Sequence record: NC_019503.1
Direction: 5' to 3' (one strand)
Source of the DNA: Escherichia phage ime09
Length of the DNA: 64,000 bases
The translations under genes and the position numbers were made by a program. Positions within the stretch are counted from its first letter, which is position 1. Every line of letters starts with the position of its first letter. Positions 2,460 through 36,515 of this stretch are shown piece after piece. The notes under the pieces are model-generated. The model was not told the origin of the DNA and made no database searches. It worked only from the letters and a program-made list of their open reading frames with translations.

Positions 2460-4279
2460 TACTGGCTCATCCATTCTTTACGAAGGTCAGCATTATCTCC
2501 CATGAGCATTTCAAAAAGCTCTTTCCAGTTCTCAGGAAGTTTAACAACATCATATACTGGGTTTTGAATCATCTCACGATATTCAGATTTTTCCAAAGAG
2601 CCAAGTCCCTTAATATAACGGATGCTATGTTTAGGTAGAGCATCTTTGGCACTCTCATATTCAGCGACTGTATAAAACCATTCTTGTTTTTTACCGACCT
2701 GAGCGATGATTACAGGAGTTTTGACAAAGCGAATTCTTCCTTGTTCAAACAGTTCTGGCCAATTACTAAAAAATCCGAGCAGAGAAGGATAAATGCTTCC
2801 TAGACCATCATGGTCAGCGTCAGTCATAATGGCAATATTATGATAATTTAAGTTTTCAGCCTTTTCACCAAGAACTAATCCAGTGATTGCGCAAATATCA
2901 AACAGTTCTTTATTTTTAAGCATATCAGCATATGACATACCCCAACTGTTGAGAACTTTACCACGTAATGGATAACCACCATGAAGTTCTTTATCACGAA
3001 CATCAATAAGATATCCGATAGCAGAATCGCCCTCAGTCAAGAAAAGAGTAGTATCAACATCTTTACCACAAAGATTCGCTTTAATGTGTTTATGAACCTT
3101 AGCTTTAGAAGCCTTTTTAGCTGCTTTAGTTTCTGCTGCTTTTTCTGCCGCCAATTTACGAGCCAAGGCAGCTTCAATAATTGGCATTAAAATTGCTTCA
3201 TTGTTTAAAATAGCACGTGAAATCTTTTTAGCATCAAGCTGAATATGACTACGAATTTCACCAAATGGAGAAGTCAAACGCTCTTTAGTCTGAGAATCAA
3301 ATCGCATGTTTTTCATATCACGAACGAACATAACGATAGTCAAACATTCTTTAACGCGTGCTTTAGTTACATCAATTTTGAACTTACGTTTGATTTGTGG
3401 AATAAGGTCTTCACAAATATCATCCATAACACAGTCAATGTGATGGCCACCATTCTTAGTATGAATGTTATTAACGTATGTTAATTGACGAAAACCATCA
3501 GGTGAACGACCGACTGCAATAGAACAGTTTTCTTGTTCTTGAACGATAGCATGCTCATCATATTGGCGTGCATATTTCTTAAAATTACCCTGAACCTTTT
3601 TACCATTAAAGGTAAATTGAATATCAGGATAAACTACTGCAAGTGTCTGGAGACGATCTAGTGTAATGTCAAGATAAACTTGAGATAGCTCATTAGTTTC
3701 AAATGACATAAAATCAGGAATGAAAGTAACACGTGTTCCTTTCCATTTTCCAGGAATATCTTCCCATGATTTATTTTCCATGCCATTTGAACAACGAACT
3801 ACAATATTATTTTGACCGTCGCCAGTTTCACCGACAAACATCACAGAAAAAATGTTAGTTAAACTAGAACCAACACCGTTCATACCGCCAGTGACGCGTT
3901 CTTTATCATCACCGAAGTTACCACCTGCTTTTGGAATAGTCCAAGCAGCAACAGGACCAGGAATTTCTTCACCAGTAGGTGTTTTAACCATCGCTTGCGG
4001 AATACCACGACCGTTATCTTCAACTGTTACTTGATTGTTTTTAATAGTAACATTAATTTTATTTGCGAATTTAAACTTAGTACGAATACCTTCATCTACT
4101 GAGTTATCGATAATTTCATCAATAAGCTTAACAAGACCAGGTACATACTGAACACTCTCCCATTTACCAAACAGAAAGCGCTCATGCATTTCATTAGCAG
4201 AAGAACCAATGTACATGCCGCTACGCTTTTTGATATGTTCAATATCGCTCAGAATTTTAATTTCATTCTTAATCATCAC
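2459..4279 (-). CDS. 39: DNA topoisomerase II large subunit gp39, unsplit (covers T4 39+60)
   Basis: 606 aa; GyrB-like GHKL ATPase and TOPRIM-type motifs; single continuous ORF. Confidence 0.9.
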   Translation of the reverse strand: MMIKNEIKILSDIEHIKKRSGMYIGSSANEMHERFLFGKWESVQYVPGLVKLIDEIIDNSVDEGIRTKFKFANKINVTIKNNQVTVEDNGRGIPQAMVKTPTGEEIPGPVAAWTIPKAGGNFGDDKERVTGGMNGVGSSLTNIFSVMFVGETGDGQNNIVVRCSNGMENKSWEDIPGKWKGTRVTFIPDFMSFETNELSQVYLDITLDRLQTLAVVYPDIQFTFNGKKVQGNFKKYARQYDEHAIVQEQENCSIAVGRSPDGFRQLTYVNNIHTKNGGHHIDCVMDDICEDLIPQIKRKFKIDVTKARVKECLTIVMFVRDMKNMRFDSQTKERLTSPFGEIRSHIQLDAKKISRAILNNEAILMPIIEAALARKLAAEKAAETKAAKKASKAKVHKHIKANLCGKDVDTTLFLTEGDSAIGYLIDVRDKELHGGYPLRGKVLNSWGMSYADMLKNKELFDICAITGLVLGEKAENLNYHNIAIMTDADHDGLGSIYPSLLGFFSNWPELFEQGRIRFVKTPVIIAQVGKKQEWFYTVAEYESAKDALPKHSIRYIKGLGSLEKSEYREMIQNPVYDVVKLPENWKELFEMLMGDNADLRKEWMSQ

Positions 4280-4303
4280 TTATCCTCGTTTGGTTTCGGG
4301 AAT

Positions 4304-4328
4304 ATTATACTCCGGTAATCATAAAGCT
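4304..4328 (-). promoter_or_regulatory. possible middle promoter for gene 39 (imperfect MotA box AGCTTTA + TATAAT)
   Basis: 12-nt spacing; one mismatch in box. Confidence 0.3.
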
Positions 4329-4346
4329 AAAGGCCCGAAGGCCTTT
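4329..4346 (-). terminator. rho-independent terminator, UUCG tetraloop
   Basis: aaaggcccgaaggccttt; RNA forms GGCC-UUCG-GGCC then U-run. Confidence 0.6.
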
Positions 4347-4606
4347 TATTTAAAGCGGATAGTCGAATTCTTGAAGAATAGACCAGAACATACGGTTCCT
4401 TCTACTTTCTGCCCGGTAGGTCCAATAGCACGAAATCCAGTATGCTGGAAATCATTTTCAGAGCAACCGAACCAGTTATATCCAGTGATTTCAATATTAG
4501 TAAAACCGCTTGAAGACAAAATTTTGGTTGCATTATCAGCATCAGTACATCCTACTAAAGATACTGCTAATACTAATGCTGCGATAGAACGATTAATATA
4601 TTTCAT
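4346..4606 (-). CDS. predicted lipoprotein (signal peptide with lipobox LVGC)
   Basis: ORF 4346..4618; likely start at internal Met giving MKYINRSIAALVLAVSLVGC. Confidence 0.55.
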   Translation of the reverse strand: MKYINRSIAALVLAVSLVGCTDADNATKILSSSGFTNIEITGYNWFGCSENDFQHTGFRAIGPTGQKVEGTVCSGLFFKNSTIRFK

Positions 4607-4610
4607 AATT

Positions 4611-4988
4611 TCACTCAAATTTAATGGCTTGAAGGAGACTAATAATTCTCAAGCGACTTCTTTCATCTTTAACTGTAAAAGAAAGAGGGTCACCAGATTT
4701 CATAGTGATAGTGCATTCAAAATCAAAATCTTCAGGAACTTCTTCGAAGAAGTCAAATTCTTCATCATAAATTAGAACATTACTCTGAAAACTGTGAAGA
4801 ATTTTTCCATCATTTCCAGATGCTGTACTAATCATTGTAACATTATGGCCTTTCATATCTTCAACGATAAATTCGCTTGTAGATATTACGGCATTAATAG
4901 AACCATTCCTATAAATAGAAGAAAGCAGATATTTCTTTTCTTCACCTTCGCGAACACGATATTTCTTACCGATTTTAAACATAATCAC
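4611..4988 (-). CDS. hypothetical protein (125 aa)
   Basis: co-directional ORF in packed array; no motif recognised. Confidence 0.5.
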   Translation of the reverse strand: MIMFKIGKKYRVREGEEKKYLLSSIYRNGSINAVISTSEFIVEDMKGHNVTMISTASGNDGKILHSFQSNVLIYDEEFDFFEEVPEDFDFECTITMKSGDPLSFTVKDERSRLRIISLLQAIKFE

Positions 4989-5160
4989 CCTTTAAGTAAG
5001 TCGTAAAATCCACCATTCACATGCTTAGGAGCAGAAGGCAGACGAGTAGACAAACGATGACATTTAGGACAAACATCATTTTCTCGTTCAGAAATCTTTT
5101 TAATTTTTTCATATTCATGCCCGCAATCTTCGGATTGGCATTTATAATCATACATTGGCA
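4984..5160 (-). CDS. small zinc-ribbon protein, FmdB-like (58 aa)
   Basis: manually translated, below track cutoff: MPMYDYKCQSEDCGHEYEK...CPKCH; two CxxC pairs; ATGA overlap with next gene. Confidence 0.5.
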
Positions 5161-5163
5161 TAA

Positions 5164-5583
5164 TTATTCCTTAAAGTGTGCTTTCAACATCTGATACAAA
5201 GACCATGCCTGTTCATTATTTTCAATAGTAACTTTCATGACAGGAAATTCTGTGAAATCTTCTATTTGTTCTTGCTCTTCCTGCTCTTGTTCTTCAGCAG
5301 CCTGATATGGATTTTCCACTTCATCAAAAAACCCAGCTTCGTTAGTAGAAAGCCAGATAAAGTTTTCGTCAAGGATATCACCATGTGTTGCATATCCAAC
5401 TGTGCCAGTAGATGTCACAATTTTAGTAGGACGCCCGTAATAGTCCACATCTAAAATTTTAAAAGGTTCCATACCTAAACGTCGTGCATAGATTCCGTTA
5501 TCAGTATGGTCTTTAATAAAATTTTCTTGAGCTTGTTTATTTTTAAATTGATACCATTTATTAACTTCAAATCTAATAGCCAT
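5164..5583 (-). CDS. hypothetical protein with acidic [10 protein letters not shown] stretch (139 aa)
   Basis: ORF in packed array; low-complexity acidic repeat. Confidence 0.5.
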
Positions 5584-7170: not shown

Positions 7171-7710
7171 TTAATTCAAAATAGCTACCACTGCACTACG
7201 AGGTACTACGCTAAAATCACCTGCATGAACAACGTTCAGAAGTTCAACACCATCTTCAATCCATTGGTCAGTTACCCAACCACAGACCGAAATAAATGGG
7301 GTCTTAATAGCTACAGCACGAGTCAAAAGGTCAGTAGGATCGCATTCTTGGAAGAGGATAAGCTCTGCTTCAAAGACTATAGTTTTAATTACTTCATCAT
7401 TATCTAAGCGTTGTGCTCGAATCACGTAGGCTTTATTCTTATCATACCAATTACTTTTTGAAAAACTTTTAACCACGAACTCGCCTTCACCAAAAACGCT
7501 AGTCAATGCTTTATAACCCAAACTTAGTTCAGTAGTTTTAATTTCAGTTTCAACCAGTTTGTAGGTTTTGCCGATTTCAATAGCGGTAGTCATAGTAGGT
7601 TCCTTAATTTCCAGTGGTTTAACAGGGCATACATAAGTGCTTACAACATCAAAATCAATCAGTTTAGCTACCGGATTTGGTGTGTATTCAGGATTATAAT
7701 TAAATTTCAT
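7171..7710 (-). CDS. paralog family member 3
   Basis: C-terminal GWVTDQWIEDGVELLNVVHAGDF. Confidence 0.6.
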   Translation of the reverse strand: MKFNYNPEYTPNPVAKLIDFDVVSTYVCPVKPLEIKEPTMTTAIEIGKTYKLVETEIKTTELSLGYKALTSVFGEGEFVVKSFSKSNWYDKNKAYVIRAQRLDNDEVIKTIVFEAELILFQECDPTDLLTRAVAIKTPFISVCGWVTDQWIEDGVELLNVVHAGDFSVVPRSAVVAILN

Positions 7711-7712
7711 AA

Positions 7713-8252
7713 TTATCTCATTTCAATAAAATCTACAAGTTCAGCATGGGATTTACGGAACATTACTTGGTGCCCGCCAATGATAACTTCATCTTCAGGA
7801 ACTTCGTATACAGCGAGATAAAATCCTTTAGAAGATAATTCTTCCCGCTCTTCTCGTGTGAACCATCTCATCATATCATATTCACTAGCGAAAGCAAAAT
7901 GATAAAGAGCTATAAACCATCCTGGAATATGATATTCTACTCCAACATAATCTTTCTTGAACTTAGTATTAATTACTATATTAGCGTTTTTAACTAATAG
8001 TTTATCTTCATGTGGTACAGGAATTCTTTTATTATCCTCACTATGATGCATAAAATTAGGTCTACTATAACCTACACGTAATAGCCACTCTTCGCTCCAT
8101 GAATCTATTATACTCCTGTATGGCGTTATTTGAACACAAAGATTTCGACGTATTGTTATAGCATCTTCACAATTAAGAATACTAAACGATGATTCAACAC
8201 GATAAATTTTCATTTTATTATCCTCAGTAGCTATGGTGTTATAATACCACAA
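7713..8252 (-). CDS. hypothetical protein (179 aa)
   Basis: co-directional ORF. Confidence 0.5.
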   Translation of the reverse strand: MWYYNTIATEDNKMKIYRVESSFSILNCEDAITIRRNLCVQITPYRSIIDSWSEEWLLRVGYSRPNFMHHSEDNKRIPVPHEDKLLVKNANIVINTKFKKDYVGVEYHIPGWFIALYHFAFASEYDMMRWFTREEREELSSKGFYLAVYEVPEDEVIIGGHQVMFRKSHAELVDFIEMR

Positions 8253-16077: not shown

Positions 16078-16274
16078 TTTGAATGCTCTATAATTAATTT
16101 TAAGGCTTCTTCATGCACCTTACCTAATTGTATATGTCCAGTTTTAATTGTGCAAGCTTTGTGGAGCTGATTAGATAAGAGCTCACATACGAGCTCCTTG
16201 TCATAATTTTTAAATAGCTGGTCAATACGTTTCTTGTGGGCTTTCTTAAGCTGGCGTTTATTTAAACGAGCCAT
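16074..16274 (-). CDS. hypothetical protein (66 aa)
   Basis: co-directional ORF. Confidence 0.45.
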   Translation of the reverse strand: MARLNKRQLKKAHKKRIDQLFKNYDKELVCELLSNQLHKACTIKTGHIQLGKVHEEALKLIIEHSK

Positions 16275-16792
16275 TAATAACCTCGGTCTTGACGAGCGAA
16301 GTTTTCAGCATTTTTCAGATAATAAAGTTTAAAGATTTCTTCAGCCGTAAGACCGAGACCTTGGAACATGTTCAGAACGAAATGAAGAATATCAATCATT
16401 TCGAATTTAATTTCCAACTGGTCTTGTGGAGACAAATCAGTAATTAAAGTTTCACGGCGTTCACCATGCTGTGACTTCCAAGGTTTCCATACAGCAGATG
16501 CATCTTTTTCACCATTGCTCATACCACCAAGAGAAGTCAATAGTTCGCGGAATTCATCATCAATATAATCTTTCTGATTACGCAGCCAATCAACAACTTC
16601 GCCTGCAGTAGCCAAATCATCAGGATGACGGTTATATTCAGGTTTATCTTTAGCTAAACGAACTTGCAGAGATTTCTGCATATCAAGCATAACTTGCAGT
16701 GGGTCTTTTTCGTCACCGAGAATATCCCAGTATTCATTTTGAGCTTTATCAGCGCCTTCGATCAATTGCGAACATTCATTAAAGTAAGCCAT
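16274..16792 (-). CDS. 56: dCTPase/dUTPase gp56
   Basis: track ORF 16274..16885; true start at internal Met (MAYFNECSQLIEG...) with AAGGA RBS; matches T4 gp56. Confidence 0.88.
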   Translation of the reverse strand: MAYFNECSQLIEGADKAQNEYWDILGDEKDPLQVMLDMQKSLQVRLAKDKPEYNRHPDDLATAGEVVDWLRNQKDYIDDEFRELLTSLGGMSNGEKDASAVWKPWKSQHGERRETLITDLSPQDQLEIKFEMIDILHFVLNMFQGLGLTAEEIFKLYYLKNAENFARQDRGY

Positions 16793-16863
16793 TATTTTTC
16801 CTTTCAATTCATGGGTTAGTAGATTAATTATACAATAAATATATAAAGCAATAAGGAGGACAT

Positions 16864-17064
16864 ATGGTACAAAAATTAATGGCACTTGTTAATGCCATAA
16901 AAGGTAATAAAAAACGTATAGCTTTTACTATTTCTGCTATGGTAGGAATTTTACTCTGGAATTTTGTTTTATCGCCAATTGCTATTGCTCATGGCGTTAA
17001 TATTCCAGTAATTACTCTTGATACATTCGTAGATTTAGCATTTGCTTTAGTTGGGTTAATTTAA
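16864..17064 (+). CDS. candidate small membrane protein, only plus-strand gene candidate
   Basis: 66 aa, two hydrophobic segments; strong AAGGAGG 4-5 nt before ATG; sits in the 56-61 gap. Confidence 0.35.
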   Translation: MVQKLMALVNAIKGNKKRIAFTISAMVGILLWNFVLSPIAIAHGVNIPVITLDTFVDLAFALVGLI

Positions 17065-21510: not shown

Positions 21511-21873
21511 TTAAAAGAATTTAAATTTTTTCTTTGACCTTTTATTAAATGCATCTTGTAGTTGCATTGTAATACATTTTTCTACATGAGGAGCTAACTC
21601 AGCTTTTCTTTCTTGGTCAAGAACAGCAAAGTCCATTATGACTTTTCCATCAACCCAATCTAATTTTGTCACATACACAATGTGTGTAGAACCGTCTTCT
21701 AGTTTAATGACAATCTCCTGGATAACATTTTCCATGGCAGATTTAATTATCTTAAGAGATTCATTAAAAAGACGTTCTTTTCTTTCTTCTTCCCCCTCCG
21801 AAGAGGGGGATTCATCGATAATTTCTAGATCTAAATCTAAATCATCTTTATTCATTAAATTCTTCCATATCAC
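21511..21873 (-). CDS. 40: gp40-like protein
   Basis: 120 aa between uvsX and 41 as in T4. Confidence 0.6.
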   Translation of the reverse strand: MIWKNLMNKDDLDLDLEIIDESPSSEGEEERKERLFNESLKIIKSAMENVIQEIVIKLEDGSTHIVYVTKLDWVDGKVIMDFAVLDQERKAELAPHVEKCITMQLQDAFNKRSKKKFKFF

Positions 21874-23029
21874 TTAACTGATCTAGGTCAGTTTCTAAAT
21901 CAGCTGCTGATTTACTTTTACTTTCTGGAGATTTAAATTTTTCAACCTTTGAGTTAATCAATTCATCAACTTCAGCTTCAACAATTTCATTACTATCAAT
22001 AGCACCTAACTGATAAGCACGTTTAATAGCATCTCGGAATGGTTGATGCTTAAATAAAGGACCCCAGAATGTAGTACAGTTGGTATCTTTTGCACGCCAA
22101 GATTTTTCTTCGCGAATCATCTCACCGGTTTCTTCGTCAAGAAATTCACGAGCATACCAGCCATTTTTAGGTTTTACCACAAATCCTAATTCAAGAGCCA
22201 TATCTAACAATCCAGAATAAGGATCGATACCACCGTCAAATTTAACATCAATAAAGAATTTACTTTTTTCTTTAACGGTACGAGATTTTTCTACATTTAG
22301 AACAAATTGATACCCCTGAAGATCAGAACCATCTTTAATCTGGCGCTTACCGATAATGAATACGGTATCAGCCGAATACATTACGCCTGTACCACCTGTC
22401 ATCACAGTTTTACTAAACATTTCAATTGTTTCAATTGTATGGTTAACCGCAACGCATGGAATGTTTTTAATACTAAAATAAGGAGTAACAATACGGAATA
22501 ATGACTTCAGTGATTTAGCACGAGTCATATCTGCCACAGATTTTTCATTCAAGGCATCTTCCGTTTCTTTCTTAGAAGCCATATTACCGATTGAGTCGAT
22601 GAATACAATAACTTTTTCGCCGCGCTCAATAGCTTCAAGCTGATTCACCATATCAATTTTCAGCTGTTCAACTGACTGGATTGGTGTATGAATTACACGT
22701 TCCGGGTCAACTCCCATGGATCGCAAATAAGCTGGAGTAATACCAAATTCGCTATCATAGAATAAACAAACCGCATCAGGATATTTGTTCAAATACGCCG
22801 CAACCATAGTCAAAGACATATTTGATTTAAAGTGTTTAGAAGGACCTGCAAAAATGGTTAAACCAGACTGCATACCACCGTCAATCGCGCCGGAAATAGC
22901 GATATTGAGCATTGGAATTTTTGTACGGATTACATCCTTTTCATTAAAGAATTTAGATGTAGTCAGTTCAGCAGTCATTTTAGAAGTGGAAGCTTTAATC
23001 AAACGGGATTTTAAATCTGCAATAGACAT
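21848..23029 (-). CDS. uvsX: UvsX recombinase (RecA-like)
   Basis: 393 aa; matches T4 UvsX. Confidence 0.93.
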   Translation of the reverse strand: MSIADLKSRLIKASTSKMTAELTTSKFFNEKDVIRTKIPMLNIAISGAIDGGMQSGLTIFAGPSKHFKSNMSLTMVAAYLNKYPDAVCLFYDSEFGITPAYLRSMGVDPERVIHTPIQSVEQLKIDMVNQLEAIERGEKVIVFIDSIGNMASKKETEDALNEKSVADMTRAKSLKSLFRIVTPYFSIKNIPCVAVNHTIETIEMFSKTVMTGGTGVMYSADTVFIIGKRQIKDGSDLQGYQFVLNVEKSRTVKEKSKFFIDVKFDGGIDPYSGLLDMALELGFVVKPKNGWYAREFLDEETGEMIREEKSWRAKDTNCTTFWGPLFKHQPFRDAIKRAYQLGAIDSNEIVEAEVDELINSKVEKFKSPESKSKSAADLETDLDQLSDMEEFNE

Positions 23030-23106
23030 TCATTTTTTCCATAGGCATCATTATATTTTCCTCACTGGTTAAAGATAGAGTAATTATAACACAATAAATT
23101 TAGGCA

Positions 23107-23955
23107 TTAATCGACTGCTATTGGATGAATAGCATTAAACTTATGAAACGCTTCTGATTTTTCTTTGCGCGAAACACACATGCGAAGAACCTTTAATGGC
23201 TCGTCTTCTTCACCCAACGATTTTCTCTTTTCAATATTCGATGTTTTCCAACGAGCTTGCTCTGGAAACTCTCTATTGATTTGCTCAAGAGCTCTATTAT
23301 GTTTTGAATTACTACGAATTGAACTACATCCGCCTGGAGCTTGTGCTTTTCCAGACACAACCAGATATTTGAACAAAGCCAAATGCGGATAACCTTGATT
23401 AATTAAATTGAGAAATGCATACATATCTTCGCATAAATCAATTTTTCCATACCCAATTTGTTCTGTAGTAAGTTTTCCGAGGTCATACCAAGTATTCGTG
23501 AATCCATATGAATTTTCACGATAATTACCCCAAGATGAAGTAATTTTAAAAATAGGTAGACGAGCATGACCGTGATAATACCCGCAATCCATGGCATCTT
23601 CAACGTATTGAATCAATTCATAGAACTGTTCACGAGTTAATTGATTAATTTTATCTACGCAGCGACGATCATCTTTCTTTCGCATTGAACTCATACGAAT
23701 AGTAGTATCATCATCAATCATCCAAATTCGTTGACCTGCATACATATCAGTAATTGCTTTACGAGTTCCAGCAATTCCATTAACATCATCAGGAATAGTT
23801 ATAATTTTAGCCCTAGACCCGTAAGCGTCATAATAAGCTTTTTCTTCATGTTCACGTACTACAATATGAGGTTCATAATCAGTCGGAAACATATCAAGGG
23901 CAGAAACTGCCCCTACGCGTTGATAGCTTGGAATTACGAATTGAATCATTTCCAC
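23107..23955 (-). CDS. GT-A fold (GT2-like) glycosyltransferase, candidate hmC-DNA sugar transferase
   Basis: 282 aa; N-terminal VIPSYQR and IWMIDDDTT (DxD); occupies the slot between uvsX and 42. Confidence 0.55.
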   Translation of the reverse strand: MEMIQFVIPSYQRVGAVSALDMFPTDYEPHIVVREHEEKAYYDAYGSRAKIITIPDDVNGIAGTRKAITDMYAGQRIWMIDDDTTIRMSSMRKKDDRRCVDKINQLTREQFYELIQYVEDAMDCGYYHGHARLPIFKITSSWGNYRENSYGFTNTWYDLGKLTTEQIGYGKIDLCEDMYAFLNLINQGYPHLALFKYLVVSGKAQAPGGCSSIRSNSKHNRALEQINREFPEQARWKTSNIEKRKSLGEEDEPLKVLRMCVSRKEKSEAFHKFNAIHPIAVD

Positions 23956-24686
23956 TCACCGTTATAATCTTTTTTCGCAATATGAGTTTCGCCAGTTTTC
24001 CACCAATGGTCAACCAAATAAAAATGACGGGAATACACGTGAAGGCTCCCGACGTTCCATATAATGGAACCTGCTTTATACTGACGAGTTGAATCACCTG
24101 CATTCAAATCAGATACTAATTTATCTAGTACATATTTTTGCCATGCATAATCATTACGGAATCCGAAGACCACGTCATTTGAACGCATGCTTACTACTGC
24201 ATTGATTTTCTTATCACGAATCAGGTACTGTACTGTATTCGTACACATGAAATCTGACATACCATCTTTATTGTAGTCAAACTGCATGGATGGACGAGTA
24301 TAAATCATGATACCACGCCGAGAATCAGGATTTTGACCAAGTTCAGCTAAACACATATCATACTGAGCATAGTTATCTTCTGACCAAATAGCCCAACCAT
24401 AATTCGAGTTAATTTCGCCTTTAGAAGATGCTACCTGTTGCCAAATCTTCGGTGTTTCACCTGGAATATCTTTAACAAACAGACTTTGAGACTTATACCA
24501 TTCAAGTTCACGCTGAATGTATTCATCATTAAGAGCGCCAAAAATAAAAGGTTCATCTGCTACAAATGATGCACCAATAATTTCAATAGTTTTAACCCCG
24601 GTTTTATCAATTACGAAATCTTTTTCCTTTAATGCAAGACCCAAATCAAGACGGATTTCTTCAACTGTCATATAATCGTTAATCAT
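23946..24686 (-). CDS. 42: dCMP hydroxymethylase gp42
   Basis: 246 aa, near-identical to remembered T4 gp42. Confidence 0.95.
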   Translation of the reverse strand: MINDYMTVEEIRLDLGLALKEKDFVIDKTGVKTIEIIGASFVADEPFIFGALNDEYIQRELEWYKSQSLFVKDIPGETPKIWQQVASSKGEINSNYGWAIWSEDNYAQYDMCLAELGQNPDSRRGIMIYTRPSMQFDYNKDGMSDFMCTNTVQYLIRDKKINAVVSMRSNDVVFGFRNDYAWQKYVLDKLVSDLNAGDSTRQYKAGSIIWNVGSLHVYSRHFYLVDHWWKTGETHIAKKDYNGEWK

Positions 24687-35296: not shown

Positions 35297-35314
35297 AAAG
35301 GGCCGAAGCCCTTT
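35297..35314 (-). terminator. rho-independent terminator after agt
   Basis: aaagggccgaagcccttt, identical stem-loop to 30587..30604. Confidence 0.55.
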
Positions 35315-36515
35315 ATTTTGTAATAATGTCAAACTGTTCTTTAAAGCAGAAGCTTGAATCTTGATGCTGATACAAAAATTCATAAGCTTTTTCGCGTTCA
35401 CGGTCATAAAGAGCTCGGTCAGATGACAGTTCTTTAATACGTTCAAATGTTGATTCCATGTCATTTTCATCAAACCAAACGATACCACTATCATGAGAAA
35501 TTAACGGAGTATTATCAACACGGAATTTTAAATTTTCGCCAGTAGATTTCCAAAATACTGGAATTGTTCCGCACGCACCAAGCTCGAGATGAGTATATTC
35601 TAAAGAACGTTGTAGATATTTTTTATCCAACTTACTCAACTGATAACCAAATCCGGATTTACTCATGCGTTCAAGCATTTCGCTATTTACATAACGGTCG
35701 AGAATTTGCGTTGGCAAATTAGGAGCAATTTTAATTTGGTCTACTTGATGAAGACGATAATACTCGTATGGAATTCCTTTTTCTTTAATAGGAATGAACG
35801 CTGGAGAACGTTCCAGACCTTCCATAATAGTACTTAGTCCTGCAGGTTTAAGATGTTTTTCGTGAAAATCAAACATCTGATAAAAACCTTTCCATGTAGT
35901 CGTACGACCAATCCAGCGGTTGACATTCATGTTAATTTCAGAAACATCTTTCCAGTAGGTTGATCGAACCTTCGCAATATCCATAGGAGGCTGAAAGTTG
36001 TATACGGTCGGTGCTTCTTCAATATCATCAAACAGAGAAACTGTTTCTGGATACCATTCTTTCATCAGAACTTTATTAAAATCACCATTATCAGAATGAC
36101 TAAAAATAACATCAGCTCGACGAACAGTTTCTTCTAATCCCAAATTTCGGCGCAAAGAAAGAGAAGAATGGTCATGTTGATAAACTACAACACGAACTGA
36201 AGGTTTAATGTTATCAATAATTTTTTTATAGTTATTAATAGTGTCTTCTTCTACTGAAGTAGCAGGAACTGAATTGATAATTAGAATATCACAATCATTT
36301 ACCAGCTTAAGTGTTTTATCGTATTCTTTTGCCAATAAAACCGGAATTGAAAATGATTTATAATCATGCGCGCAATTACGAGTAAATGATTTATCTTTAG
36401 CATAAACCAAAGTTACTTCATGACCATTTTTAATAAACCAATCACGCTGCTCGAGAGAAAATTTAGTTACGCCGCAACCTTCAAGACCTCGAGCCATAAA
36501 AATACATACTTTCAT
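35313..36515 (-). CDS. agt: DNA alpha-glucosyltransferase
   Basis: 400 aa, MKVCIFMARGLEGCGVTKF... near-identical to remembered T4 AGT. Confidence 0.93.
   Translation of the reverse strand: MKVCIFMARGLEGCGVTKFSLEQRDWFIKNGHEVTLVYAKDKSFTRNCAHDYKSFSIPVLLAKEYDKTLKLVNDCDILIINSVPATSVEEDTINNYKKIIDNIKPSVRVVVYQHDHSSLSLRRNLGLEETVRRADVIFSHSDNGDFNKVLMKEWYPETVSLFDDIEEAPTVYNFQPPMDIAKVRSTYWKDVSEINMNVNRWIGRTTTWKGFYQMFDFHEKHLKPAGLSTIMEGLERSPAFIPIKEKGIPYEYYRLHQVDQIKIAPNLPTQILDRYVNSEMLERMSKSGFGYQLSKLDKKYLQRSLEYTHLELGACGTIPVFWKSTGENLKFRVDNTPLISHDSGIVWFDENDMESTFERIKELSSDRALYDREREKAYEFLYQHQDSSFCFKEQFDIITK

Follow-up and report, generated by a model that had tools for sequence, protein, structure and literature searches.

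Genes for the β-glucosyl-HMC-α-glucosyltransferase (βα-GT) of phages T2 and T6 were reportedly first cloned by Winkler and Rüger in the early 1990s (1993). The T2/T6 enzyme transfers glucose onto α-glucosyl-5-hydroxymethylcytosine (α-glucosyl-hmC), which yields gentiobiosyl-hmC, that is, β-1,6-glucosyl-α-glucosyl-hmC (PMC13216743; PMC13390438). The level of gentiobiosyl-hmC is ∼5% in T2 and ∼72% in T6 (PMC13390438; bioRxiv 10.64898/2026.02.25.707755). Analysis of Durham phages by HPLC/MS gave hmC, glucosyl-hmC, and gentiobiosyl-hmC in a ratio of ∼1:2:2 for the BGP type, and ∼one-third hmC and ∼two-thirds gentiobiosyl-hmC for Solly-type DNA. A model of the T6 enzyme (referred to as TAGT) based on AlphaFold3 has a GT-A fold, and the protein belongs to PF20691 and to a sister group of GT2 (PMC13216743). 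The synteny of βα-GT with the β-gt gene of T4 has also been published (PMC13390438).

The second glucose is of interest because it decides which host defenses can attack the phage DNA. Brig1 and BapA, which act on mono-glucosyl-hmC, are hindered by gentiobiosyl-hmC. A T6 Δba-gt mutant, with α-glucosyl-hmC alone in its DNA, shows increased sensitivity to Brig1, which can degrade that DNA (PMC11078745), and BapA frees glucose from the DNA of T6 Δg-gt but little from wild-type T6 DNA (bioRxiv 10.64898/2026.02.25.707755). GmrSD-type enzymes still target and cut gentiobiosyl-hmC DNA (PMC13216743).

Identity of the gene between uvsX and gene 42

The window, here the whole 64-kb stretch of DNA that was analyzed, carries between uvsX and gene 42 (Table 1) a gene that is almost certainly a βα-GT of the T2/T6 type (other names are g-gt, ba-gt, ggt, and TAGT), making gentiobiosyl-hmC from α-glucosyl-hmC. 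The original prediction, made from the sequence, had suggested such a second-sugar enzyme, and alignment to the T2 enzyme bore this out, with 276 of 280 residues identical (98.6%). The protein matched PHROG 842, “beta-glucosyl-HMC-alpha-glucosyltransferase,” over residues 2 to 277 (E = 1.9e-89), and it matched Pfam PF20691 (TET-associated glycosyltransferase, TAGT) at profile positions 2 to 205 of 205 with 38.8 bits, above the gathering threshold of 27.5 bits. Identity was 279/280 with PP01, 278/280 with Solly from the Durham collection (the differences being K92R and I101V), 272/280 with phage BGP, and 274/280 with T6 record MH550421, which in addition has one stop codon.

Megablast searches matched 477 phage records, 473 of them over the full length at 90 to 99% DNA identity. 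These records are mostly from T-even phages of Escherichia, Shigella, Yersinia, and Salmonella, and many are annotated as beta-glucosyl-HMC-alpha-glucosyltransferase. A large protein database contained one 90% cluster with 485 members, a handful of proteins at 47 to 78% identity, and a single one at 29%; PF20691 is present in nearly all of these relatives. The 24-kb stretch around the gene is ∼97% identical to several Tequatrovirus genomes, and the G+C content of the gene is that of its flanks.

Table 1. Features of the window discussed in the text, with coordinates, strand, and supporting evidence
Feature	Coordinates	Strand	Evidence
Gene 56, dCTPase/dUTPase (keeps unmodified dCTP from the precursor pool)	16274..16792	(-)	tblastn with T6 gp56
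uvsX recombinase, downstream flank	21848..23029	(-)	PF21134 and PF00154 (RecA); 90.3% identical to T4 UvsX
Replacement cassette, without nucleotide homology to T4	23018..23963	(-)	blastn of window versus T4
βα-GT/TAGT coding sequence	23107..23949	(-)	PHROG 842; PF20691; megablast; identity to T2, PP01, and Solly; invariant columns; GT-A fold
Gene 42, dCMP hydroxymethylase (hmC precursor)	23946..24686	(-)	PF00303 (thymidylate-synthase family); 95.9% identical to T4 gp42
α-Glucosyltransferase (α-GT; makes the acceptor α-glucosyl-hmC)	35313..36515	(-)	PF11440 (E = 5.2e-236); 90.8% identical to T4 α-GT

Start codon and conserved residues

The open reading frame as listed (23107..23955, minus strand) encodes 282 amino acids from a GTG at 23955; its translation starts MEMIQFVIPSYQRVGAV and includes IWMIDDDTT. 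Two codons past the GTG, within the 5′ end of the reading frame (...GGTGAGTGGAAATGATTCAA...), is an ATG at 23949 that gives a protein of 280 amino acids and overlaps the TGA of gene 42 (23948..23946) as ATGA. The orthologues in PP01, T2, BGP, and Solly are all annotated from the equivalent ATG, with 280 amino acids each, and the starts of distant homologues lie no more than 2 residues from this position. Because of the overlap with gene 42 and the annotated starts of the orthologues, the coding sequence is better given as 23107..23949 than as 23107..23955, with the ATG, not the GTG, as the likely start. Thus, the reading frame, the N-terminal VIPSYQR, and the IWMIDDDTT of the 282-residue protein originally described were all seen, but its length is probably 280 residues.

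In the 280-residue numbering, the β1 motif FVIPSYQR occupies residues 4 to 11, the DxD motif consists of D79-D80-D81, and E174-D175 form a conserved pair. Residues I6, P7, S8, Y9, and D79 to D81 are invariant in alignments of 10 to 11 homologues with identities down to 32%. Residues D79 to D81 would be the site for the metal and the UDP-sugar, and E174/D175 is a candidate for the catalytic base. The enzyme presumably inverts the configuration, like GT2 enzymes, because a β-linkage is made from UDP-α-glucose.

Both public records of the T6 gene contain a lesion and inactivated alleles may occur in laboratory stocks, which could suggest that the gene in the window is a nonfunctional remnant, or even a chance reading frame. 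This is exceedingly improbable: the copy in the window is intact from start to stop and retains all residues that are invariant in the family, and the gene is conserved at 90 to 99% in the 473 records, so that a pseudogene was rejected. The lesions themselves were defined by comparison with the genes of the window, T2, and PP01. In T6 record MH550421 (7138-7980, minus strand, of the piece compared), codon 10 is a TAG stop (PSY*RVG), and the βα-GT coding sequence is annotated from the internal Met21, with 261 amino acids. In T6 record AP018814 (2135-2974, minus strand, of the piece compared) codon 10 is intact, and one GAT of GAT-GAT-GAT is missing, which changes the DxD region from IWMIDDDTT to IWMIDDTT. 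Because T6 is the classic example of a phage with highly gentiobiosylated DNA, these lesions represent either laboratory-stock mutations or sequencing errors.

A 9-bp, G+C-rich hairpin followed by a T-rich tail (TAGGGGCAGTTTCTGCCCTTG; 23895-23915, minus strand) is located in codons 12 to 18 of the coding sequence, and its sequence is invariant in the window, T2, T6, and PP01. The stability of the hairpin was not above that of shuffled sequence (z = −1.57), and terminator-like sites were not enriched in the region. It was therefore set aside as a terminator and is probably a chance structure.

Replacement of segA and β-gt

In the T4 record, the genes annotated over the same interval are uvsX, segA, b-gt, and 42. 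In blastn comparisons, homology to T4 ended at 23017, at the start of uvsX, and resumed at 23964, in the last codons of gene 42; the break points of the cassette thus fall among the initial codons of uvsX and the final six of gene 42. Therefore, a cassette of 946 bp stands in place of the 1941-bp segment of T4 with segA and β-gt (3557-5497 of the T4 piece compared). With both flanks identified and the T4 record compared, the gene lies in the slot where T4 has beta-gt, as had been proposed. The order uvsX/βα-GT/gene 42, on the same strand, was also found in PP01, T2, T6, BGP, and Solly.

There was no homologue of T4 β-GT in the 64-kb window (the best tblastn match, E = 2.5, was elsewhere in the window) and none of T4 SegA (best tblastn E = 1.4). 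The βα-GT protein of the window did not match PF09198, the family of T4 β-GT, and its fold matches are to GT-A proteins, not GT-B. A relative of T4 β-GT was rejected on the basis of the tblastn, PF09198, and fold results.

The sequence from the TAA stop of the βα-GT gene onward (23083-23109, minus strand), TAATGCCTAAATTTATTGTGTTATAAT, contains a perfect TATAAT at 23088-23083. It is preceded by TG, as in an extended −10 element, and TGCCTAA is located 11 nt upstream. We take TGCCTAA to resemble the MotA box of T4 (consensus TGCTTtA), with two mismatches, and the two elements could serve uvsX as a putative middle promoter. In one related record, the matching stretch includes an annotated promoter. 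A promoter scan of the region found 10 sites, compared to 10.0 expected by chance.

Predicted fold

The structure of the protein was modeled with AlphaFold2 from a 10-sequence alignment from which the T2 sequence was left out. The model (mean pLDDT, 70.7; pTM, 0.75) has β-strands alternating with helices and forms a single Rossmann-like α/β/α nucleotide-sugar-binding domain. The DxD motif directly follows the strand formed by residues 74 to 79, and its aligned counterpart in the GT2 enzyme 9jma is DDDD. Four segments (residues 87-100, 130-149, 194-210, and 278-280) have low confidence, and because of them the acceptor-binding part of the model is not considered reliable.

Structural matches with a GT-A fold included the cellulose synthase BcsA, the β-1,3-glucosyltransferase AvpGT, PcManGT, hyaluronan synthases, GlfT2, TarP, and TarS. 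Sugar nucleotidyltransferases had similar fold scores with shorter alignments. When viral models were searched with Foldseek, the top match was the βα-GT of Klebsiella phage PKO111 (E = 1e-36), and the next matches were proteins with a TAGT domain from diverse phages. The protein is thus predicted to be a GT-A-fold glycosyltransferase, a soluble one, that resembles the GT2 family. A GT-A fold had been proposed from the motifs, and a non-GT fold, which would have spoken against it, was not seen.

A search of the PDB with the single protein sequence gave an unrelated RNA-binding protein as the best match (E = 0.78), and with the family profile the best match was a GT2 enzyme at a nonsignificant E value of 0.23; there is no solved structure for any member of the βα-GT family. 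The Pfam model for GT2 enzymes, PF00535 (Glycos_transf_2), did not match at E ≤ 1. The description “GT2-like” in the original prediction thus holds for the predicted fold but not for sequence membership.

Partner genes and the proposed pathway

Genes for α-GT, gp42, and gp56 are present together, without a T4-type β-GT, within the 64-kb window. The presence of gp42 and alpha-gt, on which the earlier proposal of hmC DNA was founded, was confirmed by profile matches and by identity to the T4 proteins (Table 1). The α-GT is identical to that of T2 at 395 of 400 residues and to that of Solly at 397 of 400. The α-GT alleles form two groups: in one, the window, T2, and Solly proteins share ∼99% identity, and those of the other, from T4, T6, and BGP, are only ∼91% identical to the window protein. 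Because T2 and Solly share one group and T6 is in the other, α-GT allele type does not track the level of gentiobiosylation. The product of gene 56 is 71.5% identical to T6 gp56 over 172/172 amino acids (E = 9e-83), far more divergent than the neighboring replication genes (90-96%).

In the proposed pathway, the activities of gp42 and gp56 would lead to phage DNA built with 5-hydroxymethylcytosine, to which α-GT would attach glucose in α-linkage. The βα-GT would then add a second glucose, with UDP-glucose as the donor, in β-1,6 linkage to the first to give gentiobiosyl-hmC. Because its ATG overlaps the stop codon of gene 42, the βα-GT gene probably shares a transcript with gene 42, with translational coupling between the two, and would be an early or middle gene. 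The disaccharide would hide α-glucosyl-hmC from host enzymes that recognize the monosaccharide, such as the Brig1 glycosylase and the BapA glucosidase. The basis for this scheme in the window is orthology, synteny, the predicted fold, conserved motifs, and the presence of the partner genes, and the chemistry and the defense phenotype come from the T6 literature. The T6 data agree with the proposal that the modification affects host defenses, in that deletion of the T6 orthologue leaves only α-glucosyl-hmC and increases sensitivity to Brig1 and BapA.

The second sugar might instead be a different one, such as the arabinose of the RB69/Mosigvirus group, or hmC might be the direct acceptor in place of α-glucosyl-hmC. 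The PF20691/TAGT family is broad, and some phages have a lone TAGT without α-GT or β-GT, which must act on other acceptors. However, the protein is 98 to 99% identical to the enzymes of gentiobiosyl-hmC phages (T2, T6, and Solly), an α-GT is present to supply the acceptor, and deletion of the T6 gene leaves α-glucosyl-hmC. These observations make such alternatives highly improbable, and an arabinosyl or other sugar transferase was rejected; given the identity to the enzymes of gentiobiosyl-hmC phages, the suggestion of “another sugar” in the original prediction is unsupported.

Extent of diglucosylation

The enzymes of T2 and T6 differ at only five positions, despite ∼5% versus ∼72% gentiobiosyl-hmC in the two phages. 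Because such nearly identical enzymes are associated with such different levels, the presence of a βα-GT gene does not settle the extent of diglucosylation. One reading of the locus is that the orthologue works at a low, T2-like level, so that the DNA is mostly mono-α-glucosyl-hmC with a few percent gentiobiosyl-hmC. The T2 gene product is nearly identical to that of the window (276/280), yet T2 has ∼5% gentiobiosyl-hmC, and the α-GT of the window is of the T2 type (395/400). This reading is nevertheless unlikely, because the protein has the family-conserved R11 and P251, where T2 alone has H11 and S251, and because Solly, with 278/280 identity in βα-GT and 397/400 in α-GT, has DNA in which ∼two-thirds is gentiobiosyl-hmC.

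The window lacks dam, like Solly, and the BGP group carries a Dam-like gene. A tblastn search of the window with T2 Dam gave no homologue (nothing at E ≤ 1e-3). In T2 and BGP, dam is located between genes 56 and 61; the equivalent part of the window, 16274-17061, is without it. On the basis of the βα-GT and α-GT identities to Solly and the lack of dam in both, the window phage is predicted, with moderate confidence, to resemble Solly and T6 in having mostly gentiobiosyl-hmC, rather than ∼5% as in T2.

The two substitutions in T2 offer a tentative explanation for the difference in level. The T2 βα-GT (7283-8125, minus strand, of the T2 piece compared) is equivalent to the Solly βα-GT with R11H and P251S. 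In a family alignment without T2, R11 is invariant and P251 is nearly invariant, and H11 together with S251 was found in T2 alone. The window protein has the family consensus at both positions (R11, codon 11, 23917-23919; P251, codon 251, 23197-23199). It is possible, although rather doubtful at this stage, that the window allele is fully active, as in T6 and Solly, and that the difference between T2 and T6 stems from R11H, in the nucleotide-binding strand with IPSYQR, and P251S. If so, the window phage would have mostly gentiobiosyl-hmC, and the level of diglucosylation would be readable from sequence. A search of IMG/VR for R11 versus H11 alleles with a degenerate DNA pattern yielded three loci only, too few for a census.

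Comparison with known systems

All that the original prediction proposed (identity, function, fold, synteny, and defense role) is already known from published work. The window allele is a typical member of its family, 98 to 99% identical to many deposited genes, and it adds nothing new for the field. Its practical value is in correct annotation, as DNA glucosylation of the T2/T6 type and not the T4 type, which helps to predict host range with respect to defense systems and how the DNA will behave in sequencing and toward restriction enzymes.

The closest systems are the βα-GTs of T2 and T6, which are orthologous to the window protein, have the same length, occupy the same slot between gene 42 and uvsX, and have the same partners, α-gt, 42, and 56. 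The T2 enzyme differs from that of the window by 4 conservative substitutions, with no functional difference to point to. The protein spans the whole 205-position model of the TAGT family, and its fold matches include TAGT-domain phage proteins. However, the founding members of PF20691 are linked to TET/JBP-type hydroxylases, whereas hmC in the window phage would come from gp42 at the nucleotide level, and the acceptor of the window enzyme is a sugar already on DNA. The GT2 enzymes with a GT-A fold in CAZy (AvpGT, 9jma; BcsA, 4p00/9fmv; TarP, 6h1j; and TarS, 5tze) are only 8 to 14% identical in sequence, and unlike them, the window protein is a small soluble enzyme that has glucosylated DNA, not a lipid or polysaccharide, as its acceptor. 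The β-GT of T4 resembles the window enzyme in its slot between gene 42 and uvsX and in using UDP-glucose to modify DNA through a β-linkage. It differs in its GT-B fold (PF09198), in the absence of sequence similarity, and in its acceptor, since it glucosylates hmC itself and βα-GT acts on α-glucosyl-hmC. A further difference is that T4 carries segA, a gene for a GIY-YIG homing endonuclease, between uvsX and β-gt; segA is absent from the window.
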